Source of the DNA: a virus
Taxonomy: Duplodnaviria; Caudoviricetes
Length of the DNA stretch: 51,251 bases
Reading direction: 5' to 3' (one strand)
IMG/VR virus record: IMGVR_UViG_3300032069_000017
Location: 1-51,251 of that record
A program made the translations under genes and the position numbers. Each line of letters opens with the position of its first letter. The stretch's first letter is position 1. Below are positions 1 to 36,110 of the stretch, in pieces. The notes beneath the pieces were generated by a model that was given only the letters and a program-made list of their open reading frames with translations, was not told the DNA's origin and made no database searches.

Positions 1-127
1 ATCACTACCGAAGGAACAGGCAAATACATACTCATCACTGACAACCGTATCTTTTTAGGTTCAGCATCTCCAGAAGACACACCTGACATCTTTTTTAACG
101 TTGGGGGAAGTCACACAATGACTATGG
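1..127. repeat. Terminal direct repeat (circularity overlap), copy 1
   Basis: 1-127 is identical to 51125-51251. 127 is a common assembler k-mer length. The same sequence also occurs at 10111-10237. Confidence 0.95.
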
Positions 128-372
128 GGGGTTTAGGTGGTGGAGCAGCAATTGATTTTAAAGATACTGCTAACAAGAGACGAGTGAGACTTGACATAAA
201 CAGCAGTGCCATCAAAACTTACAAGACAGACGAAACTGAATTGGGCGGAATAGTCGCTGGTTCAGCGCAAGACCGTCCATGCCTCAAATTCTGGGATGTA
301 ACTAAAAGTGCGTTCTATTACGCTTATCTTGACAACGGTGCATGGGTAATTGCTAACGCTCCACCAACATAG
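1..372 (+). CDS. 3' part of tail spike/receptor-binding protein copy B (continues from 50264 across the contig join)
   Basis: In frame with 50264-51251. The C-terminus is homologous to that of 9265..10482 (…LDNGAWVIANAPPT vs …IDNGAWVISATPPT). Confidence 0.85.
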   Translation: MTTEGTGKYILITDNRIFLGSASPEDTPDIFFNVGGSHTMTMGGLGGGAAIDFKDTANKRRVRLDINSSAIKTYKTDETELGGIVAGSAQDRPCLKFWDVTKSAFYYAYLDNGAWVIANAPPT

Positions 373-382
373 GTGATCATTA

Positions 383-1240
383 ATGGATAAGGCTGTCTTA
401 GGCTACTGTCGTCTCGGATACTTTCGCTTAGGAGTCTTCGACAATACTTGGGATGAACTTGTAAGAACAGTGGAAGGCTCTGGCGCAGTAAGTCTTGATG
501 CTACACGCTTTCGTTTGATGCTGTTTGGAAGAGACGCAACAACTGGATGGTATGAAAAAGCGTATGAAGAAACTGCTATTGAAATCATAGTTTTAACTAA
601 AGCATCTCAGCAATTAGCTTTGAAATGTGGAACCTACGTTATAGGAGACGTATTAGGCTTAACCGTTGATGTTCTCAGAGAAGGCGATAGACTTCGTGTG
701 GGCAACAAATATTACGAGGTTAAAACTGTTAATGAACACTATTTAGGCGACAGTTTTTGTCGTAGAGACTGTGAACTGAGACTTTTGCCTCTTGAATACT
801 TAGTTGGTGACACCTATACGGACAGTGTAGTGGAGGATGCACGGTATAGAATGAAAGTGTTTCTTGAAACCTATTTGGACAGTGCTACTTTACCAAATTT
901 CATTGTTGCTTATGAAAACGCTGATTATCCAATGGTTCGAGTGTTCACTGATAAAGTGGTTGACTTAATATTTTGTGTAGGAACACCTGACAGCACAGCT
1001 TTACCGATTGGCGTAGGCTATGAAGAGAAAGTGCCTATCACTATCTGGTGTGTTGACAAAAGCAACATTTCAGGAACCAAACTGCGTTGGAAAGCTGAAA
1101 CAGAGTTAAGACATATTACTGAAACTTATCCTACTGGTTCACTGCGAACTTTTGAACGTTTAAGCGATAATGAAAAGAATTTGGGAAGCACGGTTCTTTA
1201 CTCAGTGAATTATGTCATGCGATATAAGAGGTATGCTTAA
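383..1240 (+). CDS. Putative fused head-closure (stopper) and tail-terminator protein
   Basis: The N-half has an SPP1 gp16-like pattern (DATTGW…LREGDRLRVGNKYYEVKTV). The C-half resembles tail terminators (VPITIWC…YSVNYVMRY). It lies just before the tail tube gene and has a GGTGA RBS. Confidence 0.6.
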   Translation: MDKAVLGYCRLGYFRLGVFDNTWDELVRTVEGSGAVSLDATRFRLMLFGRDATTGWYEKAYEETAIEIIVLTKASQQLALKCGTYVIGDVLGLTVDVLREGDRLRVGNKYYEVKTVNEHYLGDSFCRRDCELRLLPLEYLVGDTYTDSVVEDARYRMKVFLETYLDSATLPNFIVAYENADYPMVRVFTDKVVDLIFCVGTPDSTALPIGVGYEEKVPITIWCVDKSNISGTKLRWKAETELRHITETYPTGSLRTFERLSDNEKNLGSTVLYSVNYVMRYKRYA

Positions 1241-1434
1241 TGAAAACAGAAGTTAGAGACGGCAAAACCATAACCGTATTCGACAACGTGGAAGAAATGA
1301 AGTGGCACTATCACGCGAGACTATGCAGAAACTCTGCAGACACTTTAGCTCTGTTTATGGTTAACATTCAAGACGTAAAAGAGGCAAATAAATGGCTAAA
1401 AACATTAGATAACCAGTATGAGGTGAAAACGTGA
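1240..1434 (+). CDS. Hypothetical protein in the unit S tail operon
   Basis: Start and stop codons overlap those of the flanking genes. Confidence 0.6.
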   Translation: MKTEVRDGKTITVFDNVEEMKWHYHARLCRNSADTLALFMVNIQDVKEANKWLKTLDNQYEVKT

Positions 1435-1919
1435 CTTTAACACAAGTTAAAACCGAGAAGGTTCAAGGACGCATCAGCAACGTGCATATTGGTTATGATG
1501 CTACGCATGGAGTTGACATTACAAGCGGAATCCTCAGTTTTGAATACAACCGCATCCATGACGCAATACGCAATAAACCCCCAACCGCTGCAACCTCAGC
1601 AACCATAAATTTGCAGCAACCTAGCTTCTTTAATTGGAAGTTGACGTTTCTAAGCGATTGTAGAATAGCCTTTTTTGCTACTGACGTTCAAGTGGCTGCG
1701 GGCAACCAATATGCACTCGTAGACAATGGCTTTTCTAATAAGATAGAATATTTCAAAGTAATCATGGCTATTGAAGATGGCTCTGGAAATCCTAAAACTC
1801 GGACTTACACGATAACAAACGGTTACTGCTTAAGAAATAATGCACGTATCGGCAATGATGATGATGCTCAATATGTGTATGAAGGCGAAGCAGAATACAT
1901 CAGCTATGCAGATACTTAG
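1431..1919 (+). CDS. Putative tail tube protein (unit S)
   Basis: Size, position and beta-rich pattern fit. Aligns with 11064..11519 (NVHIG/DIEIG, GILSF/GIDSI, IEYFKV/VDYFKV, AEYISY/ADRIAY). Confidence 0.6.
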   Translation: MTLTQVKTEKVQGRISNVHIGYDATHGVDITSGILSFEYNRIHDAIRNKPPTAATSATINLQQPSFFNWKLTFLSDCRIAFFATDVQVAAGNQYALVDNGFSNKIEYFKVIMAIEDGSGNPKTRTYTITNGYCLRNNARIGNDDDAQYVYEGEAEYISYADT

Positions 1920-1933
1920 GGGGATGGTGAAAC

Positions 1934-2290
1934 ATGAGTTTGCGTTATGACAACACCACTGTCAAACAACTTATTGACCTTCCTAAACTGATTGAAACTG
2001 TATCGAAAGAATTGTTAGAGGAAAAGACTGAGGAAATGGTTTTAGTAGCTAAAGGCTTATGCCCGGTTCAAACTGGAACACTTCAGAAAACCATTAGGAA
2101 AGAGAGGTCGGGCAATAACATTCTTGTGAGGGCTGGGGGTTTCTATGTTAATCCCCGTTCAAAACGGATATGTGATTATGCTGTGATAGTGGAAATGAAG
2201 ACGGGGTTCATGCGGAGTGCATGGGCTTATGTTTCAAAGGGAATTGAAGAGGAAATCCAAAACCGTGTAAAGGAGAAATCTGGGCAATGA
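1934..2290 (+). CDS. HK97 gp10-like tail completion protein
   Basis: Motif AKGLCPVQTGTLQKTI followed by YAVIVE. Confidence 0.75.
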   Translation: MSLRYDNTTVKQLIDLPKLIETVSKELLEEKTEEMVLVAKGLCPVQTGTLQKTIRKERSGNNILVRAGGFYVNPRSKRICDYAVIVEMKTGFMRSAWAYVSKGIEEEIQNRVKEKSGQ

Positions 2291-2595
2291 GTGAAATGCA
2301 TGATGTCACTTTTAACATTGAATTAGACCTTTCGCAAACTGTGAGTCAGATACGCCAATATGAAATGTTGCTTTATCGTAGTTTAGCTTTAGCGCAACGT
2401 CTCGGGCTTCCAGAAAACATTCAACAACAAATTGCCGAGATTCAACGGTTGACTATGACTATTAGACTGTGCCATACAGCCCTGATATTGCTAGAATCGG
2501 CAAGTGGCCCGGTTGGGTGGGCATTGGCTCTTGTTGCTGCTGGAGGTGCCGCTGTATCAGTCGTTGATTATTTTGATGCGAGCAGGGGAAAATAA
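2287..2595 (+). CDS. Minimal tape-measure-like protein (102 aa)
   Basis: Helical, with a GPVGW motif and a hydrophobic C-terminus. Lies between the tube and hub genes and is homologous to 11524..11970. Confidence 0.55.
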   Translation: MSEMHDVTFNIELDLSQTVSQIRQYEMLLYRSLALAQRLGLPENIQQQIAEIQRLTMTIRLCHTALILLESASGPVGWALALVAAGGAAVSVVDYFDASRGK

Positions 2596-2596
2596 C

Positions 2597-4381
2597 ATGG
2601 TAACATACATGGCTCTTCCGCAAGCGCAATTAACTATTGGGGGAAACGTGTATAACGTTTTAGTTTCTGCTGATGTGACTAGAAACGAAAACGGTTTTGA
2701 TGTAGCCACAATAATCGTTAATGATGAGTTAAGCCAAAATTATCCAACAAACATTGACGCGGGCAAAACTATACTGCTCGAAGTTAAAGACTCTTCAGAT
2801 GGTTCATGGACTACGCTTTTTAATGGTTTAATCCGTTTTTGTCTTCCAAACATTTCAGAGCAAGGCGAATTTTTAACGTTGAAATGTGACGGCACAGGAT
2901 ATGGACTAACAGAAACAAGTTGTAATGAAGAGTATGGAGTGGAAAGTCGCAATACCAGTTTAGACACAATCACGGAGATTATAACGGATGCAAACAAGGG
3001 AATTGGCCCAAAATATGTGAATGGCATCTTAGGCTCTGGAAGCAGTGGCTACGCTTATGATTATTCAAAAGTCGAAGCCATAGCGGGATCAATAAACTTT
3101 GTTTGCAGCCCATACCAACCATGTGACAAATTGATTAATGATTTATGCGATTTAGTCACGGCAATTAGACAAGATGTAGCATACCATCCTGATCATCAAG
3201 GCCCACACTGGATTGTTGACACAAGCGGCAATTTCAGAATGAAACTGATTGGGGTTACTCAAGCGGGGTGGACTCTCTATTATGGTGACAGTCAAGCAAA
3301 TGCTACATTGACACAAGGCATAGATTTTGACTCTTTCAATTTTGAACATCAAGATTCAGAAGCAAACTACATTTTGTATTATGGCACTTTACGCAAGCCC
3401 GCACGTGATTATTGGACTGAAGGACAGTTTGGTATTTGGGGAAAAACTGCTGCAATGGGTTTAAGTGATGAAGCCACAATAAAGAAGGTAGGCACTTCTA
3501 GTCTTAAATGTCTCAGCACTTTAGCGGATGCACAAGCCTATTATCCTTCAGGCAAAAATGCGGGTTGGGACTTCACTAAAATTGGTTCAGCAAAAAATCC
3601 GCCCACATTCAACTTTTACAGTTATGTAGGCGCACTTACTGGTGGGCAAACTGCACGTATTGGATTATACACGGATGGAAGCAACAACGTTCACATTCAT
3701 GTGCAAAATGACACTATAGGCGAGTGGTATCCTCATTCTCTAATTGTTGGGCCATATTATAAACCGCAAGAATGGCACATGGAAGGCACAATAGACTGGG
3801 CAAACATTAATTATATTCTGATATGGCATGCGTTAGCTCTTGATACGACAACGACTTACTGGGATGACATGCACTTTGAAGGGTTAATTTGCCGAGCAGC
3901 CAAAGACTCCACACTTATCGCAGCTGACAAGTTGAAACTTAAAACTATTGTGGATCAAGTGGGCAAAGATGACGTTATGACATTGGCTGACACTGGAACT
4001 ATGGCGCGTCTTTGCGCTTCAGAACTATTTTCGGCAAGAACAAAACCATTAATCGGACAAATTACAACACCCATGATTAAAGAATTGCTTCCGGGGCAAT
4101 ATCTTCACATCCACGCTAAAACTAACAGCACCCCTTCATTTAACATAAATATGGATATGCGCGTAACCAGTTTAAGGCATCATATTGACATTAAAGGATT
4201 AACAACCTCAAGCAATCTTACGAATGACTATATGAATAGTCGCGCACGTGCATCATACAAAAACTATAACACGGTAGCCAGTGCAGTAAGACCTGACTAT
4301 CAAGACCGAAGTGCCACTAGCATAAAAGCGGGAGTCGTAGATATTGATGTGCCGATTTTAGAGGTTGATTATCCAAGTTGA
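2597..4381 (+). CDS. Baseplate hub/tail-tip protein with an inserted carbohydrate-binding-like domain (unit S)
   Basis: Likely start is ATG 2597, after a GGGG RBS. Co-linear homologue of 12821..15196 (ENG, HWI, ANYIL, YWTEG, PGQxxHIHA, PDxQxR). Confidence 0.7.
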   Translation: MVTYMALPQAQLTIGGNVYNVLVSADVTRNENGFDVATIIVNDELSQNYPTNIDAGKTILLEVKDSSDGSWTTLFNGLIRFCLPNISEQGEFLTLKCDGTGYGLTETSCNEEYGVESRNTSLDTITEIITDANKGIGPKYVNGILGSGSSGYAYDYSKVEAIAGSINFVCSPYQPCDKLINDLCDLVTAIRQDVAYHPDHQGPHWIVDTSGNFRMKLIGVTQAGWTLYYGDSQANATLTQGIDFDSFNFEHQDSEANYILYYGTLRKPARDYWTEGQFGIWGKTAAMGLSDEATIKKVGTSSLKCLSTLADAQAYYPSGKNAGWDFTKIGSAKNPPTFNFYSYVGALTGGQTARIGLYTDGSNNVHIHVQNDTIGEWYPHSLIVGPYYKPQEWHMEGTIDWANINYILIWHALALDTTTTYWDDMHFEGLICRAAKDSTLIAADKLKLKTIVDQVGKDDVMTLADTGTMARLCASELFSARTKPLIGQITTPMIKELLPGQYLHIHAKTNSTPSFNINMDMRVTSLRHHIDIKGLTTSSNLTNDYMNSRARASYKNYNTVASAVRPDYQDRSATSIKAGVVDIDVPILEVDYPS

Positions 4382-4548
4382 CAAACTTTAAAGTAATTGC
4401 CCTAATTTTGGTTGTGATGGCTTTTCTAATGTATGGCACAGGTTTAACGTGGCTGTATGAGTTGCATCAGCCTCTAATCGCTTTTCTTGTTTTTTTGCCT
4501 TCAGCTTCCATGCTTGCAGTTACAGCTCTAAAGTTTTTGAGCAGTTAG
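4378..4548 (+). CDS. Small two-TM membrane protein (holin-like position)
   Basis: Read manually: MTNFKVIALILVVMAFLMYGTGLTWLYELHQPLIAFLVFLPSASMLAVTALKFLSS. Its TTG start overlaps the hub stop codon. Confidence 0.5.
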   Translation: MTNFKVIALILVVMAFLMYGTGLTWLYELHQPLIAFLVFLPSASMLAVTALKFLSS

Positions 4549-4581
4549 GCTAGGCTTTTAATGTAATAAAAGGCTACTCTT

Positions 4582-4946
4582 TACGAGATACCTCGTATTC
4601 CCTTATGTATAAGGGAGGGGGGTATCCCCCTACTCTTTCCAGTTGTGCGTGCGCACAACTAACATAGTTACGGCGTAACTATGAACCCCTACTCTCAAAA
4701 GATGAGGAACCTTCAAGTTTTTGAAAGCTTCAATTTTAACTAAGATTCTGAAAAGAAGGTTGCTATAAGCTTAGAAAGTGAGGTTTCAACCTAAAATAAG
4801 CTTCTTTCAACGTTGCCCAAGGGCAACAAATTAGTGTGTTTCAAAGTCTATGCACAGCTTCCACTCTAAATAGGTTCCCCAATATTTTGGGTGAGCTATT
4901 TTGGTTTTAGGCTTAGGCATGGCGACTCATCACAATTAATTGTGAT
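4582..4946. other. Non-coding cluster of inverted repeats (candidate origin, pac or terminator region of unit S)
   Basis: At least seven palindromes or hairpins between the convergent operons. Confidence 0.55.
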
Positions 4947-4963
4947 ATAGCAAATCTTAAACC

Positions 4964-5203
4964 TTACGATTGCTGAAGGCTACCCCTTCCACGACTATCA
5001 AGCAAAACTTCGCCACGTTCAAACTTAACCGCACACAAAACGACACCGTCAAACTGTTTAGAGAGCTCTTCAACGATTTGTTCACGGGATAAAAGATTAA
5101 TGTTTTCAGCTTGAATGCGATCCCTTCGACTCTGATTAAAAACAAGTTTTCGGACAGCTTGACGCTGAAGGCCCTCAGGGCTTCGTTGTCCTCTGTGAGT
5201 CAT
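4964..5203 (-). CDS. Hypothetical protein
   Basis: Last ORF of the minus-strand cluster of unit S. Confidence 0.45.
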   Translation of the reverse strand: MTHRGQRSPEGLQRQAVRKLVFNQSRRDRIQAENINLLSREQIVEELSKQFDGVVLCAVKFERGEVLLDSRGRGSLQQS

Positions 5204-5550
5204 GCTCTAAACATAATTGTTATGTCCATATATGCTTTTCTACATAACGAACCAATACCCATGAAGAAACACCATGCCCTTTCGACCACCATACGCTTTT
5301 CCATAGAAAACTCGAAAAAGCCCATGCCCAAAACCGAAATTAACATCATTTTAGAGCTCTAAAGAGCTCTACAAGGCTTCCGCAAATCAGCCTTCTTTCA
5401 CGAAAACAAGCCATAATCGAGTAGAAAAACTCACTCCATAAATGACTGGGGCCTCATATAAAAACCCTCGAAAATGAACCTTTTAAGGCAAAAGCTTCAC
5501 CAAAACGGTATGTTTAATTATACATCCGATATGTGTTCGATATGTAAATC

Positions 5551-5823
5551 TTACACATTAAGATATGAGGATGGAAAAGCAATTATCAAAACATGTTTAT
5601 TCCGTAAGTATTCAGCTTGGCCCAACGTCATTTCACCTTCAAACAACATGCACCTTTTCCCCGCATACTCGCTGAAGCCACTGGGCAACGAAATTTCTAA
5701 TGTGTCATACTCTCTGTTTTTTGCTTTATGTTTGTGACTTCTAATTTTGCGTATGCCTCTAAGTTGTAGAACAACACTACACTCTTGCAGTGTTGTAGAA
5801 CAACTTTCAGCTTGTTCACTCAT
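5551..5823 (-). CDS. Hypothetical protein, possibly AbrB-like DNA-binding
   Basis: IRKI…TLEISLP pattern; overlaps the stop codon of the MTase gene. Confidence 0.4.
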   Translation of the reverse strand: MSEQAESCSTTLQECSVVLQLRGIRKIRSHKHKAKNREYDTLEISLPSGFSEYAGKRCMLFEGEMTLGQAEYLRNKHVLIIAFPSSYLNV

Positions 5824-6311
5824 TCTGATCCATCCTTAGAAATTTTCATAAAACAAAACCAATAAGTCTTAGAAGCATGTTTACGACTTCCTTCATCACC
5901 TTTAGTGATTTGCCCAAAAAGAGGTTTCTGAGGAAAAAGTGATAAGATACTTGAAACCTTCACACATCTCGCGTTCCACTTGAAAATCAAAACGCCCATG
6001 GGCTTTAACACTCTGAAACATTCTCTTGCGCCTTTACTGATGTCTGATGCCCAGGTTTCAGGCTTCAAAAAACCAAAATCTCTTATGAATTTAGAGTTAG
6101 GATCAGAAGCCTTTTTCCTAATCTCATGCGGAGGATCCCAAACGATTAAGGTGAAAGTGTCATTTTCAAACTCTTTTAAATCTCTAAAATCACCAACAAC
6201 ATCAGGATTACATTCTGGGCGGTTATCCAAATAAATCGTGTTAGGCTGCTGCTTATCAAACCACATCATACGATAGCCAGCGGAAGCATCTAAAATAAAT
6301 TTCTCGCTCAT
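5820..6311 (-). CDS. Small phage-type class I SAM-dependent (amino) methyltransferase
   Basis: ILDASAGYRMMWFDK motif I, DPPH catalytic motif, ECFRVLKPMGVLIFKWN. Confidence 0.85.
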   Translation of the reverse strand: MSEKFILDASAGYRMMWFDKQQPNTIYLDNRPECNPDVVGDFRDLKEFENDTFTLIVWDPPHEIRKKASDPNSKFIRDFGFLKPETWASDISKGARECFRVLKPMGVLIFKWNARCVKVSSILSLFPQKPLFGQITKGDEGSRKHASKTYWFCFMKISKDGSE

Positions 6312-6625
6312 GGAATAATTCCCCTATACTTCAGCCATGCCCTACACAACGCATCAAAATCTTCCACAGCAAAATGCGATTCCACACGATACCAGTCCCG
6401 GCTTTCAGCTTGCCGAAACACGGCCTTAGGTTCTTTAGGTTGAAAAACAATGAGATGCGCCTCTTCACCATATCGATAACTATTAGTCAAATGATCCACA
6501 CAAACCGGGCCATTATACTCAATTTTTAAACTATGGTCAACGGAACAACTGACAGTGATAGGCACTCCACGAAACACATGCTCGATATGTGCGCCTTTAT
6601 AGATTGTAGCCTCAACCATGCCCAT
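6308..6625 (-). CDS. Hypothetical protein
   Basis: Overlaps the MTase start, with a GGTGA-type RBS upstream on the minus strand. Confidence 0.55.
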   Translation of the reverse strand: MGMVEATIYKGAHIEHVFRGVPITVSCSVDHSLKIEYNGPVCVDHLTNSYRYGEEAHLIVFQPKEPKAVFRQAESRDWYRVESHFAVEDFDALCRAWLKYRGIIP

Positions 6626-6732
6626 TCACCTTTTTCGCGTTGCAACTCCTACACCGGGTTGAAGGCTTACCATGCCCCCGGGGCAATGGCACACCACAAT
6701 CTTCGCAAACCCTAAAAGTCTGATGCGCCATT

Positions 6733-7221
<489 letters not shown>

Positions 7222-7293
7222 TTTTCATACAAATCGCATGTTTGGGAGCAGTTTAGGCATGTTGGTTCTAAGTTTGCTTTCACGTTTCAAACT

Positions 7294-7346
7294 TCCTACG
7301 TAGGATATATAGATAGCAAGTGTTATATAACACTTCCTACGTAGGA
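7294..7346. promoter_or_regulatory. Divergent promoter/operator of unit S
   Basis: TCCTACGTAGGA palindromes at 7294-7305 and 7335-7346 flank the perfect palindrome AAGTGTTATATAACACTT (7318-7335), which contains a symmetric TATA box. Confidence 0.75.
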
Positions 7347-7366
7347 GTAGCAAGGAACTGATTAAA

Positions 7367-8101
7367 GTGGCTCACAGTTCTAAAGAATATATGCGAGACT
7401 TTCGTAAGAAACAAAGAGAAGAGGATAAGCAAAAAGAACAGTGGATCAACGAAGCCAAAGACGTTTTAACTGAGTCTTCTGTGGAATTGCTCAGAAAGGT
7501 TATTCAAGAACAAGTCGCGAAGGGGAGAAGTTTAGAGGATGCTGAAGAATTTTATAAGGGTTATGTTTCAGCTGGGATGTGGCAAGAATATTTGGATTCT
7601 AAGGGTTTAGTGGCTAACGCGGGATGGGTTAAAGGTGACGCTGAACTATGCCCTAAATTAGATACTACTCAGCTTCTTGAACGTAGCCAAAAACTGATTG
7701 AAATGAAACTTGCAAGAGACAGCGAAAGAAAAACAGATTCTACACCGAAAATAAAGGATCCGTGGCAATCGTTAGCTATGAAAAGAAGAAAAGAAGCACT
7801 CACATATAAAGCGGTTGACGTTTTAGCCAGTGTTGAAGAAACCGTTAAACACAGCAAAATCCAAACAGATCAGAAACTTCGTGATATTGCCCGGTTAATT
7901 GAGGATGTTAAAAAGTCTGATCCTGAAGGATGGGCCAAAATTCACGATAGGGTGGGAAGAAAAGACGAGTATGCTAAATCAACTGCTATGGATTTGACAG
8001 TCGGCAATCTTTACGGTAAGAGTCCTGATGAGCATGGCAAATCACCTGAGGAAATTAAGGCTATGAGAGAACAGAAAAAGAAGGATGCAGGGCATGAGTG
8101 A
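7367..8101 (+). CDS. Hypothetical charged helical protein
   Basis: Long ORF, first gene after the divergent promoter. Confidence 0.65.
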   Translation: MAHSSKEYMRDFRKKQREEDKQKEQWINEAKDVLTESSVELLRKVIQEQVAKGRSLEDAEEFYKGYVSAGMWQEYLDSKGLVANAGWVKGDAELCPKLDTTQLLERSQKLIEMKLARDSERKTDSTPKIKDPWQSLAMKRRKEALTYKAVDVLASVEETVKHSKIQTDQKLRDIARLIEDVKKSDPEGWAKIHDRVGRKDEYAKSTAMDLTVGNLYGKSPDEHGKSPEEIKAMREQKKKDAGHE

Positions 8102-8323
8102 AAAAAAGATTCCGATAAGTGGCCCTGATGATGTTAACATTAGAACGCATCCTTTAACAAGGCCACGAAAAGTAAAGACGGACACATTGACTAACATACC
8201 TCCTTTGTCCCTGAAGGGGTTTTCATACGTGCGTCAAACACGGTGTTTTACCTTGATGATGGGATGCTCTAAGAAAAAACCGAATCGTAGGATTCAAATA
8301 ATGGTTAAAATTAGGGGTATCAT

Positions 8324-8794
8324 ATGATTCGAGAAACGCTTGAAAGACGCTTAGAAACGAGCAAGCTCTTAGGCCAAGGCTTCAGCAGTGGTGAAGTTGT
8401 TAAGTTTCAAACGGAGAAATGGGATGTTAGCAAGGTTACAATTTACAATGACCTAAAAAGTCTTGGATGGTTAACTCAGCTTTTAGGCTTAAATGATGTT
8501 AAAGTTAACTTCGCAAAAAGCGTGAATAGACATGAATACATGTATAAATCTTCTATGCTGGGTTATTTGACAGCTACAACTGAGAACGGTAAAATAGGCT
8601 TTTTACACATGGCGCATGAAGCACAGAATAGCCTAGATGACCTGTTAGGATTACATGGTTTAGTTGGTAAAGAATTACTTGAACCTGAACCGCCTGGCAC
8701 TCCTAAATATAGTGAAGAGGAAAAACAAGTTCTCGATAAGGCTTGTCGCATAATTAAACAGCATAGATATGAACCGAGGGAGAGTATTCATTAA
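8324..8794 (+). CDS. Terminase small subunit-like protein (N-terminal HTH)
   Basis: ERR…LLGQGFSSGEVV…VSKVTIYNDL HTH, then two helices ending in LLGL. This layout is common in TerS proteins, but no TerL follows. Confidence 0.5.
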   Translation: MIRETLERRLETSKLLGQGFSSGEVVKFQTEKWDVSKVTIYNDLKSLGWLTQLLGLNDVKVNFAKSVNRHEYMYKSSMLGYLTATTENGKIGFLHMAHEAQNSLDDLLGLHGLVGKELLEPEPPGTPKYSEEEKQVLDKACRIIKQHRYEPRESIH

Positions 8795-9105
8795 TGCAAA
8801 AAGTAAATTACGATCCAATAGTCAGCATGTTTGGAATAGACACTTTCCCGTTAAGCGTAGCTCTCCAATCAATCAACGGAATGAGCAAACCCCAAGACTT
8901 AACAATCCTGGTTAATTTAGATTTGAGAGACGGTAATGGTAAGCCTACAATCGAGTTTTTGCACAAACCTGAATCAGTAAGTTTCACTCGTCAAGTAGGC
9001 GATACAACGACTGAAAACTCAACCCTTCGCATAGTTGTCTTAGCAAATAAGAGAGTTGACAGTTTACCCATTCAACAACAAAGAACAACGAGAACATGTA
9101 GGTGA
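8794..9105 (+). CDS. Hypothetical protein
   Basis: Coupled to the upstream gene by TAATG. Confidence 0.55.
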   Translation: MQKVNYDPIVSMFGIDTFPLSVALQSINGMSKPQDLTILVNLDLRDGNGKPTIEFLHKPESVSFTRQVGDTTTENSTLRIVVLANKRVDSLPIQQQRTTRTCR

Positions 9106-9264
9106 AAAACATTGAGGCAATTTTGGAACAGTAACGGCGAGTTAGAAATTCATTGGGACAGCAAAAACGAAATGATAGAGTATTGGATTAGGCGCAAAAG
9201 CGAATTTGACGTTGGGGGACAACAAACTATTCAGATGTTGATTGATTATCAAAAGGTGAAGTAA

Positions 9265-10482
9265 ATGCCACAATTTAGTGATGGACAAAAAATATCGGAA
9301 GCACTTGTTTGGGACCGTTTAATACAGAGTGGCCCAGCAAGTTATGTCATTTGGAAAGATGGAACACAAACAAAAGCTGAGTGTTTGCTGAAAGGCGGAA
9401 CCGACTATACTACTGGAACAGATGCAACGGTTATGCAAGCGGCAATAGACGGTTTAACCACTGGAACCATACTTGTTAAAAAAGCCACTTATTCATTATC
9501 AGTAGGCTTAATCAATCTCGCTAAAGAAATAGAAATCGTCTGTGAACCGGGAACAGTTTTTCAACCAACAGCAGCAATAAACATGATTACGTTTGATAGG
9601 GTTACCCACGTGGTTGCGGGCATAAAAAATGCGACATTAGACTTAAACAACACTGCTTCAACTGGTTTACTTTTGCTGGATAGTTGGCACACGATTAATG
9701 ATGGTTTAAAAATAATCAACGTGGGAACCAATGGTGTTGGAGTAAAAATTTATTCAACAAACAACAGTTACCTTTGCCTATCCAATTATGTTCGCTGCAG
9801 ACAAATAAAAGCTTACAGTGCACAAATAGCGGGAAGCATTGGTGTCTTAATTGATTCAGCAGGCGGAATAGCAGCGGGAACAAACAACGTTGTGGATGTT
9901 GGGTATTTAGGAGCACCATCTGTCGAAACTGGCATTAAAAATGTTGTTGGTGGCTCATCTGTTTTTCATGGAATAGTTGAAGGTTGTAAGATTGGAGCAG
10001 ACATTTCTGGAACGGCAACTCTGTTTCTCCACGAAGAAGCCAACACAACATACGGAATAATCGTTAGGACAGGAGCAAAAGTTAAAGGAATCCTTCGCTA
10101 TGCTGAAAACATCACTACCGAAGGAACAGGCAAATACATACTCATCACTGACAACCGTATCTTTTTAGGTTCAGCATCTCCAGAAGACACACCTGACATC
10201 TTTTTTAACGTTGGGGGAAGTCACACAATGACTATGGTGGGTTTAGGTGGTGGAGCAGCAATCGATTTTAAAGATACTGCTAACAAAAAACGCGTGAGAC
10301 TTGACATAAACAGCAGTGCCATCAAAACTTACAAGACAGATGAAACTGAACTTGGCGGGCTAATTGCTGGTTCCGCAGAGAACCGTCCCGTCCTTAAATT
10401 CTGGGACGTAACTGCGAACGCTTTCAAATACGCTTACATTGACAACGGAGCGTGGGTAATATCAGCTACACCGCCGACTTAA
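9265..10482 (+). CDS. Tail spike/receptor-binding protein (pectate-lyase-like beta-helix), copy A
   Basis: DATVMQAAID…GTILVKKATY start typical of beta-helix tailspikes, followed by Gly/Asn/Ile-rich coils. Confidence 0.75.
   Translation: MPQFSDGQKISEALVWDRLIQSGPASYVIWKDGTQTKAECLLKGGTDYTTGTDATVMQAAIDGLTTGTILVKKATYSLSVGLINLAKEIEIVCEPGTVFQPTAAINMITFDRVTHVVAGIKNATLDLNNTASTGLLLLDSWHTINDGLKIINVGTNGVGVKIYSTNNSYLCLSNYVRCRQIKAYSAQIAGSIGVLIDSAGGIAAGTNNVVDVGYLGAPSVETGIKNVVGGSSVFHGIVEGCKIGADISGTATLFLHEEANTTYGIIVRTGAKVKGILRYAENITTEGTGKYILITDNRIFLGSASPEDTPDIFFNVGGSHTMTMVGLGGGAAIDFKDTANKKRVRLDINSSAIKTYKTDETELGGLIAGSAENRPVLKFWDVTANAFKYAYIDNGAWVISATPPT
9566..10237 (+). repeat. 672-bp identical core of the shared spike gene, copy A
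   Basis: Matches 50580-51251 (offset 41,014) wherever compared. It is bounded by mismatches at 9565/50579 (C/G) and 10238/128 (T/G). The antisense ORFs 9716..9919 and 50730..50933 are identical. Confidence 0.93.
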
Positions 10483-10501
10483 GTAAAGTAAGTGATATTC
10501 T

Positions 10502-11062
10502 ATGGATGTTGCTCTTGCTGTCTATAATTGCTTAGTTAATGGTTGGAATAAACCACAGATTATTGATATAGCTGATTTTTTATCAGATGATTATACTGAC
10601 CCAGACTTCTTTGTTAATGATGTCTATGAACAACCTGAAAGTGGTTTACCAACTGTAACATGGAGACTAGATGAATTTGACCCTAAAAGCCCTAGCATAC
10701 AAGTGTTAATAGAAAGTTTCCCTATACGTAGTGTGTGGGTTGCTAGAGGAATATACCGGGTAGAACATAAGGTTAGAATCACTATATACCAGAAGCTTGT
10801 CCATTATAATGCTGATAGAATATCAGAGTATAAAACAAACTGGTTTAAGGTTAAGACAGAGATTGATAGAATCTTAGCTATAAATAAGTTTAGTATAACC
10901 AATATTTCTAACCTTAACTTGACTGGTGGCTGGGATGATAAGAATACTATTGCTGTTGGTAGAGGAATAAAGACTACTAAAGAACCTATAGTATGGAAGA
11001 GTGAACAGATTATTACAACGGTATATTATACTAATAAGATATTAGAAGAGGAAGTATCTTAA
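10502..11062 (+). CDS. Putative tail terminator (unit L)
   Basis: Precedes the tube gene; VRITIY…KTEIDRIL pattern. Confidence 0.55.
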   Translation: MDVALAVYNCLVNGWNKPQIIDIADFLSDDYTDPDFFVNDVYEQPESGLPTVTWRLDEFDPKSPSIQVLIESFPIRSVWVARGIYRVEHKVRITIYQKLVHYNADRISEYKTNWFKVKTEIDRILAINKFSITNISNLNLTGGWDDKNTIAVGRGIKTTKEPIVWKSEQIITTVYYTNKILEEEVS

Positions 11063-11063
11063 T

Positions 11064-11519
11064 ATGTCTTATGGTAACGTTATTATAAGACCTAAAGATA
11101 TAGAAATAGGCAGTAATGCTAATGAGCATTATCTATGGTTTGGTATAGATTCTATTAATTGGACAGATGTTACTCCTTGGGAGCATATAGAAATACCAGC
11201 AGGTCCAATGGTTCACCAACATCTTCATAGTCCCCATATAAGAGGAGAGATTAGATGCTATGATTTTGATGCTTTGTATAAAGCCTTATTTAGTACTATT
11301 ATAAATGTTAGTAATAAGACAGCTGTTAATCCAGATACTATGGCTAAATATACTGTAGACTATTTTAAAGTTAATATAGTTAATGATAAGAATGAGACTA
11401 TAGAAGTTATAATAGATGGGTTTAAAGTAGAGACTGTAGGAGTAGAAAATATTAAGTTAGGTTCAGAAGCCCTTTGGATAGTAAAGTTTTCTGCTGATAG
11501 AATAGCTTACGGAGTGTAG
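11064..11519 (+). CDS. Putative tail tube protein (unit L)
   Basis: Homologous to 1431..1919; position in the tail module. Confidence 0.6.
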   Translation: MSYGNVIIRPKDIEIGSNANEHYLWFGIDSINWTDVTPWEHIEIPAGPMVHQHLHSPHIRGEIRCYDFDALYKALFSTIINVSNKTAVNPDTMAKYTVDYFKVNIVNDKNETIEVIIDGFKVETVGVENIKLGSEALWIVKFSADRIAYGV

Positions 11520-11523
11520 CCTA

Positions 11524-11970
11524 ATGCCAAATCCGTGGGCAGATTTAATTACTGAATATATTGCTGACTTAAGAGCTAGAGTATATGCATTAGAAGCTAA
11601 ACAACAAGAACTTGAAGCAAGCCTTATGGGTAGACCGGAAGGAGAGAAACTAACAGAAGAAGAAATGGAATCGGAACGTGTAAAGGCTGTTTCTACTATT
11701 AGTATGATTGGCATGGCTAGACGTTCAGTTTATGGCTATGCTATGCTTCTAGATAGTCTGGGACTACCTAAAGACCAGAGAGAAATGATTAGACAAGTAG
11801 AAGCTAGTATTACTGCTATGATGAGGCTTATGCAAGCAGTTAGAGCAACAGAACTTGCTATACAAGCATTTGAAGCTGGTATGGGTCCAATAGGATGGGT
11901 GTACTTAGCTATGTCTGGTGGTATGTATGCTGCTACTATTATGTATGGAAGTAAAACATTAGGGGGTTAA
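11524..11970 (+). CDS. Minimal tape-measure-like protein (148 aa)
   Basis: Helical, with LGLP and GPIGW motifs shared with 2287..2595. Confidence 0.55.
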   Translation: MPNPWADLITEYIADLRARVYALEAKQQELEASLMGRPEGEKLTEEEMESERVKAVSTISMIGMARRSVYGYAMLLDSLGLPKDQREMIRQVEASITAMMRLMQAVRATELAIQAFEAGMGPIGWVYLAMSGGMYAATIMYGSKTLGG

Positions 11971-11974
11971 AGCA

Positions 11975-12175
11975 ATAACTGATTACTATAGGACAATAAT
12001 AGATTATATAGGTGAATTAGATAATAGATTAAAAATAGCTAATTTTTATAAAATTTTTACTGAAATAATAGAATTAAAGGATAGAAAGTTTAAGCTATGG
12101 AACTGGTTTAGGCTTCATTTAAAATATAAGTACAAAGAGCATCCTGAAGAATCTACTGGTAAGAGTGGTGGTTAG
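11975..12175 (+). CDS. Short paralogue of the 12180 repeat protein, probable ATA start
   Basis: Read manually: (I)TDYYRTIIDYIGELDNRLKIANFYKIFTEIIELKD…YKYKEHPEESTGKSGG, matching the repeats and KEHP…KSG tail of 12180..12821. No ATG/GTG/TTG is in frame. Confidence 0.65.
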   Translation: MTDYYRTIIDYIGELDNRLKIANFYKIFTEIIELKDRKFKLWNWFRLHLKYKYKEHPEESTGKSGG

Positions 12176-12179
12176 TTAA

Positions 12180-12821
12180 ATGCCAGAAACAGTACCAGCA
12201 GACTTTGACTATAATGATTTTGAGCCAGCGGACTTTAAGACTGATGCACAGTTTGAAGAATCACTTATAGATAAAATTGGTAACTTGTATGTTTGGAATA
12301 GAATGGTTACTAGGTATAGACTATTCTTAGATAAGAATGGTTTAACAGATACAAGATTAAGAACTAGTACTCTTTATAGAGTATTTATAGATAAGGTTGG
12401 TAATTTAGATAGTAAAACCACTCTAAGAAGGATATATAGAAGTATAACTGATAGTATAGGCTTATTAGATGCTAGACAGAGAATAGCTAGTATGCATAGG
12501 AGTTTTATAGATAAGATAGGTGAATATGATGTTTTTAATACAGTACTAGGTACGGTTACTCATTTCTTTAGAACCATATATGAATTCTTAGGGTGCTTAG
12601 ATGCACGTAGTAGAATAAGTAGTTTACATAGATTATTTACTGAAGAAGTGGAGTTAAAAGATACTAAATTAAAAACCGTTACCCTTTATAGAATATTCAT
12701 AGAGAAACTTAGCAGTATTACTGTACTTAGCTTTATATATCGCCATTCAATATTATATTATATATACAAGTACTTGCATAAAGAACATCCTAAACAGAAG
12801 ATACAGAAGAGTGGTATTTAA
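12180..12821 (+). CDS. Tail-associated protein with about 20-aa tandem repeats
   Basis: Roughly eight repeats of the type YRxFxDKIGxLD. Confidence 0.65.
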   Translation: MPETVPADFDYNDFEPADFKTDAQFEESLIDKIGNLYVWNRMVTRYRLFLDKNGLTDTRLRTSTLYRVFIDKVGNLDSKTTLRRIYRSITDSIGLLDARQRIASMHRSFIDKIGEYDVFNTVLGTVTHFFRTIYEFLGCLDARSRISSLHRLFTEEVELKDTKLKTVTLYRIFIEKLSSITVLSFIYRHSILYYIYKYLHKEHPKQKIQKSGI

Positions 12822-15196
12822 TGGATAGTAGAATATTAAGACAAGTAAAGATAGGGGAAGACCCAGATATTACAGATGACAGTATAAGTACGTTAGTTAC
12901 TTTACCAGAGAATGGTATTAGTACTTGTATCATAACTGCTAATAATGATGCTGGTAAGAACTATCTAGCCCACTTTAAACTGCTTGATGAAGTAACTGTT
13001 AAATATGCTTATGAAGAAGATAATCCAGTATGGGATAATATAAACCCGGTATTTAGAGGCAATATTATAGAACTTACTCCTTCTATGACTAGAACTGGAG
13101 AAGTAGTTTCAGTTATAGCTATAAATATTGGTTACTGCCTTAAACAAATGAGAGTAGCTACTGAATACGGAACTCAAGCTATTATTACTGATATTAATCC
13201 TATACATGATGCATGGACTGATAGTTTAACACCTACTGATGGTGTATGGGATAAAGGGAGTGCAGACAATGTTCTTAGTCTAGATTCAGGTATTAAAGTT
13301 TATGGTCAGTATAGTATTAAGACTATAGCTGGAGCAGATGGTACTCCGTATCCATACTTTACATTAAATAGTGGTAAAGAAGTTAATGCTAATAATTATT
13401 CTTATTTAGACTTCTACTGTAGATTTACTGAAGCATCTAATGATTTAAGGGTTATCCTATCAGATATAAATAATAAACAAGCTTCTATTTGGGTATTTGG
13501 TGCTACTCCCCAGAATGGTGCTTGGTATGCTAAATCATTAGATATAACTTTAACAGGGAGAGCTAGTTGGACTGTTGATGCTGGATTTGACTGGACAAAG
13601 ATTAAGAAGATATGGTTTAATGCTTTTACTGCTAGTACTGGTGCATTATGGATTGATGTAGTTTACTTTGACACTATGCCGTTAATCCCAGAAACTTTAA
13701 GACAGATACTACTTAATTCTAATAATGGTTTAATAAATAGATATATAGAGAAGATACTTAATACTGAAATTAATTCTGGTTACAGTTTAGACACGAACTA
13801 TGTGTATAATGACTTAAGTACATATTCTTACTTAAACTTTCCTTACCAAGATGCTTTTATGTGTTTACAAGACCTTATAAGGTTAGGTTCTAGTTTACAT
13901 TATGTAGCTAGTCCAAGTAGTTGGAAAGGTCTACACTGGATAATAACTCAAGATGGTAAACTAGTAATTGCTCCCGTAGGAGACCATCATGTTGAAGGTG
14001 CAACTGGTAAATGGATAGATAGTATATGGGCTATTAGAGTATCTAATGAACCTTTAGTAGTTAGAGAGGATATGATTACACAGAACTTTAAGACTGAAAT
14101 ACCATTAGCTAATTACATATTAGTAGCTGGTAAGTTTATTTATCCAATAAATGAATATTGGACTGAAGGACATAGTGAATTATGGTCAAAGACCAATCCT
14201 AATAATTGGGTAAATGGTACTATAACAAATGATTACGTAAATAAGGTTGGTGGCAATTCTTCCCTTAAAGTAGATTCTGGTGGTGATGTTGGTACTACAG
14301 TAATAGGTATTATTCACGAGAATGAAGATATAGACATAGCAAAGACAAGTACTAAGAATAGCATACCTAAACTTCTAGTGTCTATTCGTAAGGAAGCTTT
14401 AGGCAATTTCTTAAAGATTAGACTATGTACCACTGACACTAATAACTACTTTGAACTGGATATAACTAATAAACTAAAAACTGATGATGAGTGGGCTATA
14501 TTAGAAATAGAACTTAGTGATTATGCAAAGACTGATATATGGACTAAAGTTGGAAACCCCGGTTGGAATCATATAAACAAAATATGGTTCTATATGCAGA
14601 CTCCAGCAATTGGTCATCTTATTATTTGGTTTGATGGTTTAGAAATTGCTAATAACTGTATTAGAGGGGCATACATATCTGACTGTGGACAACCCACCAT
14701 TGATACTTGTACTAAAGGATGTATTAAACATTATAACTGTAGATTCTTAACTATTAAGGATAGTCTAGCTAGTACAGATAATTTAGACCCAGCTAATGAT
14801 AGTAGCCCTTTAGCACAATTAGCGTTATATGAACTACTACGTAACCGTATAATAAGAACTACTGGACAGATAACTATACCATTAGACCCTAGCATAACGC
14901 CCGGTCAGTTAATACACATTCATGCTTGCTATGATGAAGCAAATAGTATGTATAGAATAGATAGGGACTTTAGAATTACAGAAGTACAACATAACTTTAT
15001 TATTAGTGGAACTGTAACCTTATTGAAACTAGTAGATGATTTACTTAATAGTATTCCTATAGATACCATGGACCCGTATAGTATAACTATGAGAGCTATT
15101 AATCCAGACTTCCAAACCAGAACCTATGCTAGCCTTAAAACTGGTGGAGACTTTATAACCTCACAGAAACCCATAAGCAAAGACTACACTAATTAG
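12821..15196 (+). CDS. Baseplate hub/tail-tip protein with two carbohydrate-binding-like inserts (unit L)
   Basis: Homologous to 2597..4381. The inserts end in DWTKIKKIWF and WNHINKIWF. Confidence 0.7.
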   Translation: MDSRILRQVKIGEDPDITDDSISTLVTLPENGISTCIITANNDAGKNYLAHFKLLDEVTVKYAYEEDNPVWDNINPVFRGNIIELTPSMTRTGEVVSVIAINIGYCLKQMRVATEYGTQAIITDINPIHDAWTDSLTPTDGVWDKGSADNVLSLDSGIKVYGQYSIKTIAGADGTPYPYFTLNSGKEVNANNYSYLDFYCRFTEASNDLRVILSDINNKQASIWVFGATPQNGAWYAKSLDITLTGRASWTVDAGFDWTKIKKIWFNAFTASTGALWIDVVYFDTMPLIPETLRQILLNSNNGLINRYIEKILNTEINSGYSLDTNYVYNDLSTYSYLNFPYQDAFMCLQDLIRLGSSLHYVASPSSWKGLHWIITQDGKLVIAPVGDHHVEGATGKWIDSIWAIRVSNEPLVVREDMITQNFKTEIPLANYILVAGKFIYPINEYWTEGHSELWSKTNPNNWVNGTITNDYVNKVGGNSSLKVDSGGDVGTTVIGIIHENEDIDIAKTSTKNSIPKLLVSIRKEALGNFLKIRLCTTDTNNYFELDITNKLKTDDEWAILEIELSDYAKTDIWTKVGNPGWNHINKIWFYMQTPAIGHLIIWFDGLEIANNCIRGAYISDCGQPTIDTCTKGCIKHYNCRFLTIKDSLASTDNLDPANDSSPLAQLALYELLRNRIIRTTGQITIPLDPSITPGQLIHIHACYDEANSMYRIDRDFRITEVQHNFIISGTVTLLKLVDDLLNSIPIDTMDPYSITMRAINPDFQTRTYASLKTGGDFITSQKPISKDYTN

Positions 15197-15243
15197 TAAG
15201 CTTTAAATAGTTTATTATACACTATTATTAGTAGGTAAATAAT

Positions 15244-15609
15244 ATGTATGAAGATATAATTAAAGGAATAGCATTAGGAGCATTCTATGGTGCGCAAGCA
15301 GCTCTGATTGGTTACTTAAAGTCTGATGAACTAGAACAAAGCTGGAGAGTGGTTCTTACTAAGAAGTTCTGGGAATCCTTTGAACCAACTAAAGCCATAA
15401 AGACTATTGTTGTTGGTGCGGCAATGGGCGGTTTTACACAAGGACAAATCTATGGTATAATACCAGCAGACCCAATAGTTAGTAACTTTGGATATGATAT
15501 TATAGTAATGGGTGTTGACCAGTTTGTTAAGTTCATTGTACGTAGAACACCGCTTGTACGATTATGGAACGCGCTTAAAGAGAAAGTCTTAAAGCTACCG
15601 GTACAGTAA
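15244..15609 (+). CDS. Membrane protein, possible holin
   Basis: Hydrophobic segments, last gene of the virion block, own TTTAAATA promoter at about 15202. Confidence 0.45.
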   Translation: MYEDIIKGIALGAFYGAQAALIGYLKSDELEQSWRVVLTKKFWESFEPTKAIKTIVVGAAMGGFTQGQIYGIIPADPIVSNFGYDIIVMGVDQFVKFIVRRTPLVRLWNALKEKVLKLPVQ

Positions 15610-16269
15610 AGGGTACCTTCTAGGGGTATGCTACTAATATTCTATCTATATCCCATTTTATTATACTATCTTATTTTTATTACTACTAATGAGTGTAACT
15701 GCAGGTGCCATTTTCAGCATTAACTTAGGATAAAATTAGAAAACCAACTAGCAGTACCAACCAGCGGTTTAACTTTGGGGGCACGACCAACCGCCAGTGA
15801 CAACTGATAGTACAATAGATAGTTCTGCTCTAATAAATTGTAGTTTAACTGGTAGGTATAACTGGTAGTTTAAAACGATGGTAAATGATACTGATAGTTA
15901 AACCGGTAATAGAACTACAATATTCTATAGTTAAACTTTGTATGGTCCTCACCGGTTGGTCCCTATGATATAATTATACTGCTGGTTTAACCGGTACTTA
16001 AGGCTAGGCTTATAAGCTGATTCTACCTATAGTTTAACTAGTATATTAGTATTCTATTACTGGTTAGTGGCACTGCCGAAGGAACTGGGGGAGGGACTGA
16101 GGGAGTGTCCTTGTATATGCTTTTGTATATAGATACTAGATTGTATAGGTAAGTCTATTACTTTAAATACTTTACCTATATAGGCGGTTTAACTTTTTAG
16201 TATATAAGGCTTTTAAAAGCTTAAATACTAGACCTACTATAGGCTAGGCTAGGTAAGAAGGTTAGAAGA
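15610..16269. other. Long non-coding region of unit L (candidate origin or packaging region and early promoter)
   Basis: No ORF. Repeated GTTTAAC/GTTAAAC words, GCGGTTTAACTTT at 15764 and 16184, and TATA-like TTTAAATA and CTTAAATA near its 3' end. Confidence 0.55.
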
Positions 16270-16599
16270 ATGGTAAGTAAACTTTACTTAGAAAAGCTTA
16301 AAGAAGAATTAGTAAGTAAGCTTAAGCTATCTAGTAAGAAGATAGTAGTAAGTTCTTCTAGTTCTAAGAAGGTTATAGCCTATTATTCTAAGCTTAATTC
16401 TACCTTAGGAAAAGCTAAGTATAAAGAACTAGAAGTTAAACTAACAAAAGAAGAACTAGAAGAATTAGAAGAATACTTTGATGAATACCTAGAAGGTTGT
16501 ACAGATTTTTGTAATAGTAAGTTTTATTATCTTAATAGTCTTTTAGGAATCTTAGAAACTTTATTAGATACTAGTTTTAATATAGAATTTACTAATTAA
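16270..16599 (+). CDS. Hypothetical early protein
   Basis: First ORF after the non-coding region, with an AGGT RBS. Confidence 0.55.
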   Translation: MVSKLYLEKLKEELVSKLKLSSKKIVVSSSSSKKVIAYYSKLNSTLGKAKYKELEVKLTKEELEELEEYFDEYLEGCTDFCNSKFYYLNSLLGILETLLDTSFNIEFTN

Positions 16600-20583: not shown

Positions 20584-20613
20584 GTTTCCAATAACCGTTT
20601 ATGGGGTTAAAAG

Positions 20614-36103: not shown

Positions 36104-36110
36104 TTAGTAA

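Follow-up and report, generated by a model that had tools for sequence, protein, structure and literature searches.

A headless, tail-carrying element of 10.1 kb, probably a satellite, joined with a 41-kb head-tailed virus in a single metagenomic record

The IMG/VR virus record IMGVR_UViG_3300032069_000017 (Duplodnaviria; Caudoviricetes), analyzed here over its whole length of 51,251 nt (the window), is classed as 100% complete with direct terminal repeats but very probably combines two replicons in one chimeric sequence. One of these, denoted L (10483..50263, + strand), is recognized by family matches as a 41-kb head-tailed virus. The other, denoted S, is a unit of 10.1 kb that encodes neck, tail and spike proteins and in which no head gene was recognized. 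S is probably a satellite; the more specific reading, namely that S is a separate, headless, tail-carrying DNA that was derived from small viruses of the type of G002 (a complete genome described below) and spreads as a satellite, has in our estimate about an even chance of being correct.

The two units are apparent, first of all, from the architecture of the record. The terminal overlap consists of 127 nt (positions 1..127, identical to 51125-51251 and to 10111-10237), so that the circle is 51,124 bp. The spike gene is present in two copies coding for 405–410 amino acids, A (9265-10482) and B (50264-51124 continued at 1-372), that align over ~1,020 nt with 95.6% identity: the first 55–60 codons are very different and are followed by a zone of scattered differences, then by an exact core of 672 nt (9566-10237), whereas the final 245 nt differ by ~12%. 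The repeat recurs at spacings of 10,110 and 41,014 nt, so that the circle falls into two closed loops of these lengths in bp, S being the smaller and L the larger, in agreement with the original prediction, which had cut the circle at the two spike genes. An exact repeat of 672 nt cannot arise by chance, but that the core shows 100% identity is in part a product of construction, because an assembler prints a shared edge twice. The first 127 nt of the window are the final 127 nt of the core, and the window closes on the final base of the core; the core accordingly represents a de Bruijn branch point, that is, one edge with two entries and two exits, and the overlap of 127 nt is the usual mark of an assembly with k=127 that has closed on itself. 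The signature of a figure-of-eight is thus present, in that the contig stops where an exact repeat exceeding k runs out and its two ends overlap by k, and the assembler would have walked through a graph of this shape, in which S and L meet in the 672-nt spike core. Because such a walk goes through both loops, the contig alone cannot separate one circle of 51 kb from two circles of 10.1 and 41.0 kb.

The two possibilities can be separated by sequencing depth. Run X1 contains 97% of the sampled words of positions 5001-15000 and is probably the source sample, and three runs from three further studies (X2–X4) contain 11–26% of the sampled words; all four are sediment metagenomes. Depths were taken from Logan contigs placed on positions 373-20372, each contig having one mean word depth rather than a read profile. 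Six X1 contigs without a single difference to S have depths of 193.7, 191.7, 192.9, 172.9, 180.6 and 189.0 and include the S-specific junctions between the spike end and the first gene (373-1191) and between the gene for a 103-amino acid protein and the spike (9006-9495). L is matched without a difference by two contigs, one of 5.7 kb at a depth of 45.5 and the other of 4.4 kb at a depth of 36.8. By these contig depths, S is ~4–5 times more abundant than L (173–194x against 37–46x), the difference by which the original prediction had proposed to tell two replicons apart. S is therefore not simply a part of one 51-kb genome, and the four- to five-fold difference allows at most about a quarter of the S copies to be linked with L. 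The contig that continues from the core at 184x carries the letters of 128-372 and not those of 10238-10482, so that the S loop runs from 9265 through the core to 128-372 and then from 383 to 9264. The contigs of X2–X4 cover S patchily and thinly and differ from it at many positions, and no meaning attaches to the parts left uncovered.

We consider it highly likely that S is a closed unit of 10.1 kb, which would be a circle or a concatemer. The junction from the 103-amino acid protein gene through the spike to position 383 is also found in L005, a 12,904-bp metagenome contig with the headless gene order of S, and in a 2,512-nt contig of X2 that links 9079 through the spike to 377-1316 and might share the lineage of L005. 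The region from the end of the hub gene to 6745 is matched by L005 and by another relative, L007. These recurrent junctions are at odds with S being part of a larger, separate virus, the outcome that had been named as fatal to the original prediction.

Among 16 S open reading frames (ORFs) compared with Pfam and PHROGs, a set that left out the small ORFs 4378-4548, 4964-5203, 5111-5362 and 5474-5737, there were no matches to capsid, portal, protease, TerL, polymerase or integrase families, which bears out the predicted absence of head, packaging-motor, polymerase and integrase genes. Clear family matches were obtained only for 1934-2290 and for a DNA methyltransferase, and the three S ORFs longer than 250 amino acids are all neck, tail or spike genes. 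When 20 head or head-proximal proteins of G002, of the related genome G001 and of L were compared by tblastn with S and L005–L009, the result was one spurious match of 18 amino acids; the head genes of G002 and L barely detect each other, which makes this a weak control. The head, packaging and polymerase genes reside in L, as had been predicted, along with tail genes of its own: L encodes PolB, RadA, a thymidylate-synthase-like protein, a C5 methyltransferase, a protease, TerL, and proteins resembling the major capsid protein (MCP) and the portal, the last two being weak calls (phrog_267, E 2.2e-5, and phrog_9232, E 1.9e-6, respectively). The head genes of L (36156-48797) are arranged in an unusual order: protease, MCP-like, TerL, a 544-amino acid protein, portal-like and a 369-amino acid protein. 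The depth border between the two L contigs of X1 (45.5x and 36.8x) lies at ~16,020-16,046.

The origin of S can be traced through its relatives. G002 (the record of locus L001; loci L013 and L014) is a 27,549-bp circle and a complete head-tailed virus with genes for TerL (phrog_2, 1.4e-38), portal (phrog_146, 2.2e-31), protease, decoration protein and major head protein (phrog_264, 8.6e-16). The head genes are followed downstream by a module of the S type, which also contains small proteins and in which the stopper and the terminator are separate. The identity to S is 43% for the stopper (to the N-terminal half of the fused S protein), 70% for the terminator, 70% for a 64-amino acid protein, 86–88% for the tube and 75% for the hub. 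Because G002 contains the same module together with head genes, the S tail appears to derive from complete small viruses. In G001 (the record of L010), the MCP gene and a glycan-modification cluster are followed by a spike-like gene located directly 5' of the stopper; the spike of L is likewise positioned, so that a spike between head and neck genes is normal in this group.

L005 shows the same order as S, with 95.5% identity for a helix-turn-helix (HTH) protein, 95% for the 103-amino acid protein, 52% for the spike, 97% for the fused neck protein and 94% for the tube, along with the 64-amino acid protein. Its spike has conserved ends and a different body, its hub is different (33%), and upstream there are a tyrosine integrase (phrog_1, E 1.4e-17) and proteins of 141, 508 and 188 amino acids; no head gene was found in the 12.9 kb. 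L007 matches S in the tube (96%) and in the small leftward genes (94–99%) and then diverges. L009, an 11.3-kb contig binned in a Bathyarchaeota metagenome-assembled genome, encodes a stopper-ended protein, a terminator, a tube (83%) and a hub; it yielded no homologue to any head gene of G002, G001 or L, and four of its proteins compared with Pfam had no family. The stopper-ended protein of L009 (4988-6730, 580 amino acids) has the stopper domain at its C-terminus and 477 preceding residues without a match, and represents another kind of neck fusion, to a large and possibly spike-like protein. For the archaeal label given to S in the original prediction, the basis consists of this one Bathyarchaeota-binned contig and the RadA-type recombinase of L.

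The first gene of S (383..1240, + strand) encodes a fused neck protein that consists, by fold, of a stopper/head-closure domain (residues ~16-139) and a tail-terminator domain (149-285). The AlphaFold2 model, built from 56 aligned sequences, has a mean confidence (pLDDT) of 87.8, and Foldseek matches it to T5 p142 (E 1.5e-5). In the VIA comparison, residues 149-285 align with T5 p142 at Z 12.3 (rmsd 2.5, 127 aligned), with the tail chain of Haloferax tailed virus 1 (HFTV1) at Z 11.2 and with lambda gpU at Z 9.9; residues 16-143 align with the Pam3 neck (Z 11.0), FCWL1 (Z 9.0), the phage 812 stopper (Z 8.1) and PBSX XkdH (Z 8.0). The library-wide HMMER search yielded 395 matches to this family at E <= 1e-3, many of them with 260–300 amino acids and both halves, others with the first half only or the second half only. 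Fused stopper-terminators are common in this virus group and are not peculiar to S. The possibility that the fusion is a deletion scar, considered because in L001 the halves are separate with two genes between them, was rejected given how common the fused form is.

Next in order, all on the + strand, are a conserved 64-amino acid protein between terminator and tube (1240..1434), with homologues in the same place in L001, L005, L007, L009 and L010, and the tail tube protein (1431..1919). The tube model (AlphaFold2, pLDDT 84.2; 101 homologues) has the tail-tube/Hcp fold, with Foldseek matches to the pyocin R2 tube, the R4C tube and the HFTV1 tail, and Z scores of 11.3 to 9 to tube/Hcp chains in the wide VIA comparison (11.3 for the pyocin tube chain, 9.5 for the HFTV1 tail chain). 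The tube family was detected in one of the 401 genomes of the class of G003, which is G003 itself, but these genomes are mostly incomplete, so that absence is not shown. The tube gene is followed by a tail-completion (Neck1-like, gp10-like) gene (1934..2290; phrog_5, E 5.7e-5), and then by the gene for a 102-amino acid protein (2287..2595), with homologues in the same five relatives, which occupies the tape-measure position and would, by that position, be a mini tape measure. The stopper, the terminator and the tube proposed originally are thus matched at the level of fold, and the gp10-like protein at the level of family.

The assignment of the tail-tip hub-like protein (2597..4381, + strand, 594 amino acids), also part of the original proposal, is a lead from a language model: in the ESM Atlas the protein scores 0.99 to virus clusters, in two of which PF24032 (YQBQ) occurs in 51% and 38% of the members. 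The start of the listed ORF is at 2504, and the relatives align from residue 32. PDB sequence searches with the hub, the spike, the HTH protein alignment, the tail-completion protein and a 244-amino acid protein of S gave no meaningful match, and scans of IMG/VR detected no relatives of the fused neck protein (single query), the spike, the 244-amino acid protein or the HTH alignment.

When genes of S were compared with those of L005 or L007 (10 comparisons), the ratio of non-synonymous to synonymous substitution rates (dN/dS) was 0.07–0.28, so these genes are kept by purifying selection. For the fused neck protein, dN/dS is 0.28 in both halves, on few changes (6 synonymous and 6 non-synonymous in the stopper domain). 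The start of the rightward operon (7367..9105, + strand) encodes a charged protein of 244 amino acids, an 80-amino acid ORF, the 156-amino acid HTH protein (8324-8794) and the 103-amino acid protein; no Pfam or PHROG family was found for these, the L005 copies are 95–96% identical, and dN/dS is 0.24 and 0.18. The HTH protein lies at the place of the small terminase gene and had been called TerS-like, a call that the searches did not back: there are three homologues (P0001–P0003) and no Pfam, PHROG or PDB match, and the Atlas provides a lead to Uroviricota proteins of 140–162 amino acids, one cluster of which has HTH_23 in 44% of its members. In comparison with the three homologues, the last ~35 residues are almost invariant and the remainder is 44–48% identical; the invariant end may serve to dock a conserved partner, or it may be a patch introduced by recombination. 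The complex predicted for this protein and the TerL of L scored 0.00, which counts neither way.

If S is indeed a satellite of this kind, the following sequence of events can be envisaged. Small viruses of the G002 type would have lost the genes for TerL, portal, protease and capsid, and the product, S, would have kept the stopper-terminator, tube, tail completion protein, short tape-measure-like protein and hub, along with the spike, the HTH protein at the small-terminase place, the methyltransferase and small regulators. The DNA of S may be packed into heads made by a helper, with the HTH protein possibly directing the packaging, and the neck, tail and spike of S would join these heads via the stopper domain. 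Extended further, and more tentatively, S, L005 and probably L009 might belong to one lineage of satellites that form tails and exploit archaeal head-tailed viruses; they would cap helper-filled heads with their own stopper-terminator, tail and spike, decouple their host range from that of the helper and swap spike bodies with co-infecting viruses such as L.

The connection between S and L is the spike. Copy A (9265..10482, + strand) consists of an S-type N-terminal anchor (9265-9441), the shared body and the L version of the 3' end (10238-10482); copy B (50264..51251, + strand) has an L-type N-terminal part followed by the shared body, and the high-depth S version of the 3' end is at 128..372 (+ strand), 12% different from 10238-10482. 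In copy A, but not in copy B, the anchor matches the L005 and G001 spikes. The GC content of third codon positions (GC3) is 0.33–0.40, as in S, in the shared body and both 3' ends, and 0.14, as in L, in the N-terminal part of copy B. Taken together, the split in GC3 and the N-terminal matches indicate that in L a receptor-binding body of S-type origin has been attached to an anchor proper to L. No family or PDB match was found for the spike in Pfam, PHROGs or the PDB sequence search, and its role is suggested by its position and its modular N-terminal part. The identical core suggests a very recent exchange between S and L, hence co-infection of one host at least sometimes, and the shared body suggests the same host surface as well as recent recombination.

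This exchange does not make L the helper. L, which had been cast in that part originally, is a candidate only through the shared receptor-binding body of the spike, and a G002-like virus, which has the same neck family and a tail module 70–87% identical to that of S, is at least as likely. By BLASTP, the S–L relatedness of tail proteins is confined to the hub (27%, to L 12821-15196) and the 102-amino acid protein (26%, to L 11524-11970), so that the second, diverged copy of the tail genes proposed for L is visible only in part. No homology of neck, tube or TerS-like proteins was detected between S and L outside the spike body. The profile of the fused neck family gave probabilities of at most 0.8% against four spike-adjacent L proteins, which as single sequences offer low power, and a relaxed BLASTN comparison of S and L outside the spike revealed no shared non-coding signal.

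The composition of the two units is equally divergent. GC3 is 0.32–0.42 in S genes and 0.12–0.30 in nearly all L genes, and the tetranucleotide correlation of S is 0.53–0.63 with four parts of L, compared with 0.93–0.95 with L001, L005, L007 and L010. In the 39.8 kb of L (10483-50263), GATC is absent (57 expected), GGCC occurs once (23 expected) and GTAC occurs 96 times, whereas in S, GTAC is absent (13 expected) and GATC and GGCC occur 16 and 13 times, respectively. Judged by composition, S and L have different histories.

Several points weigh against S being a satellite, and in particular a satellite of L. The opposite avoidance of sites makes a long co-evolution in one host seem unlikely, but does not strictly exclude a common host because S and L each carry their own methyltransferase. 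Packaging is conjectural, the samples are bulk sediment metagenomes, the identification of the HTH protein as TerS is a guess, and no replication protein or integrase was recognizable among the 16 scanned S ORFs. With respect to closure, no contig of another assembly spans the whole of S, and the stretch 6745-8184 is witnessed only by the window contig and pieces from X1. No stand-alone contig of ~10 kb with S proteins is on record, in a look-up of exact-sequence clusters for 10 S proteins, 7 of which are on record, and which is not a proof of absence. The evidence from depth is at the level of contigs, so that related strains sharing exact segments could inflate it, and a minority of real S–L cointegrates may exist.

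Four other explanations have been considered. S might be a plasmid-like producer of tails only, analogous to F-type tailocins, that remains unpackaged and kills competitors. Rhizoviticin, an F-type tailocin, is plasmid-borne. The presence of tail genes without head genes and the high copy number of S both fit this explanation, as does the small membrane ORF located directly 3' of the hub gene (4378..4548, + strand; 56 amino acids with hydrophobic stretches, putatively holin-like), an ORF known from sequence only, with no homologue found 3' of the hub in the relatives. Tailocins carried on plasmids or chromosomes are, moreover, known in bacteria (PMC10811719), but no archaeal F-type tailocin was found in literature searches. 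What speaks for a role beyond the tail is the retention of the stopper domain, which functions in the joint between head and tail, with its low dN/dS (on few changes), and of a conserved HTH protein at the small-terminase place; being fused to the terminator, the stopper may nevertheless be a passive passenger. We regard the tailocin as an unlikely explanation.

Alternatively, S could be a recent internal-deletion mutant of a G002-type virus, comparable to defective interfering genomes, that attains a high copy number beside its parent without any strategy having evolved. The block missing from S is exactly the one that extends from TerL to head completion, no integrase or replication gene is recognized in S, and the close similarity of its tail module to that of the complete G002 would be expected under this scenario. 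A recent deletion is harder to reconcile with L005, which has the same headless order at a DNA difference of ~5–8% but another spike body and hub and an integrase, or with L009, whose tail module is accompanied by no detected homologue of a head gene and, in the four proteins scanned, by no head family. Furthermore, all compared genes are under purifying selection, and relatives of S are present in runs of four studies, which makes a recent mutant quite unlikely.

A third explanation takes the 51-kb path produced by the assembler at face value, as one real genome or cointegrate in which S was inserted into L between the spikes, either through homologous recombination or because L acquired a foreign tail module. 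There is a precedent in an Asgard virus that was first assembled as one circle with a putative satellite and might integrate it (bioRxiv 10.64898/2026.08.12.739948). Given the limit that depth sets on joined copies, the sharp differences in composition and site avoidance, and a 672-nt core that is unresolvable at k=127, so that the contig is no evidence for the join, a single genome is distinctly unlikely. Finally, it is very unlikely that S is incomplete, with a mis-join concealing the remainder of a larger virus equipped with head genes: the Logan contigs are short with many variant branches, there is a simple repeat of 70 nt (7094-7163) and the nearest full relatives carry head genes, but the repeat is shorter than k=127 and is crossed in frame by ORF 6733-7221, with even depth (173–194x) on both sides, the junctions at the spike and across 4538-6745 recur in L005, L007 and X2, and the loose contig ends at 4375 and 4537 match mosaic borders in L005 and L007, where similarity begins at 4538.

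The rest of S lies between the hub and the rightward operon. An ORF-poor mosaic region (4549..5550) contains a conserved gene for a 79-amino acid protein (4964-5203, - strand) that is kept in L001, L005, L007, L009 and L010. An attachment site or RNA in 4382-5550 was considered and rejected: no tRNA genes and no Rfam families at the gathering score were detected in the whole window. The summed depth of 4375-5708 in X1 is 355–455, in X2 it reaches 488 in 5042-5708 against ~16 for the S-like contigs, and there are many loose ends and several short palindromes; this segment is best read as a module shared among related, more abundant elements. The leftward operon (5551..7221, - strand) encodes a 90-amino acid protein, the DNA methyltransferase (5820-6311; phrog_954, E 1.5e-45), a 105-amino acid protein and a 162-amino acid protein with poly-Asn, all but the methyltransferase without a family, and has dN/dS of 0.10–0.11 in comparison with L007. 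The run of ten Asn codons in ORF 6733-7221 corresponds to the repeat at 7094-7163, and the protein has Cys and His residues near the C-terminal end; a variant contig of X1 (depth 25.7) has another sequence in place of 6733-7247. G002, which is among the smallest complete tailed-virus genomes in this analysis, encodes a PAPS-reductase-like protein (phrog_424, E 3.6e-34) and, after the portal, a 445-amino acid protein that resembles the spike-like protein of G001. On a practical note, a chimeric record classed as complete affects the statistics of genome size, completeness and gene content that are built on such records.

S is best classed as a satellite or an element derived from a defective virus, with a reversed division of labor, and several known systems resemble it in part. 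In the passages of a 2025 report cited here, the archaeal satellites known are limited to pSSVi/pSSVx and the SRCE elements, each of them associated with spindle-shaped viruses (bioRxiv 10.1101/2025.02.15.638363), and full-text literature searches, the coverage of which excludes supplements and subscription journals, turned up no headless satellite with a complete tail module. An archaeal parallel in terms of assembly is NMV2S, a 3.8-kb circle of higher coverage that was first co-assembled with the Asgard head-tailed virus NMV2 (bioRxiv 10.64898/2026.08.12.739948). As with S, an assembly of one circle was resolved into a virus and a small circle of high coverage, with possible integration, and the host of NMV2S is archaeal; unlike S, which at 10.1 kb is mostly structural and has no recognized replication gene, NMV2S has no structural genes reported in the cited passages.

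Among bacterial elements, the EPIPs of Mycolicibacterium encode a small terminase, a head-to-tail adaptor, a stopper and a tape measure, the latter being unusual in satellites (PMC12822802). They share with S the combination of satellite status with neck and tail-length genes, but as far as the source describes them, they have no tail proteins, carry scaffold and capsid genes, and are known from isolated particles with a known helper, whereas in S the tube, terminator, hub and spike are present and head genes are absent. F-type tailocins such as rhizoviticin (PMC10811719) have non-contractile tail genes without head genes, as does S; they are not known to be mobile carriers of DNA or to need head-joining parts, in contrast to S with its stopper domain, its HTH protein at the TerS place and its separate, high-copy DNA. 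G002 and G001 have a homologous neck-tail module, in G001 with the spike directly 5' of the stopper, and differ from S in having head genes (TerL, portal, protease, decoration and MCP in G002, MCP in G001), of which S has none.

[quoted passage not shown] Like these, S is small, carries half of the virion morphogenesis genes and has an HTH/TerS-like gene next to the structural genes. The cf-PICIs are bacterial and integrated, and their mobilization has been shown experimentally, whereas mobilization is hypothetical for S. A cf-PICI carries genes for capsid, portal, protease and head-tail connector and none for the tail; the division of labor is reversed in S, which has the neck, tail and spike and no head genes. 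If the satellite reading holds, an S-like element could alter which cells the capsids of its helper reach, and S would be among the very few satellites proposed for archaeal head-tailed viruses (bioRxiv 10.1101/2025.02.15.638363; 10.64898/2026.08.12.739948). It would then complete the set of satellite strategies, namely borrowing everything, making heads only and making tails only, as the first of its kind.

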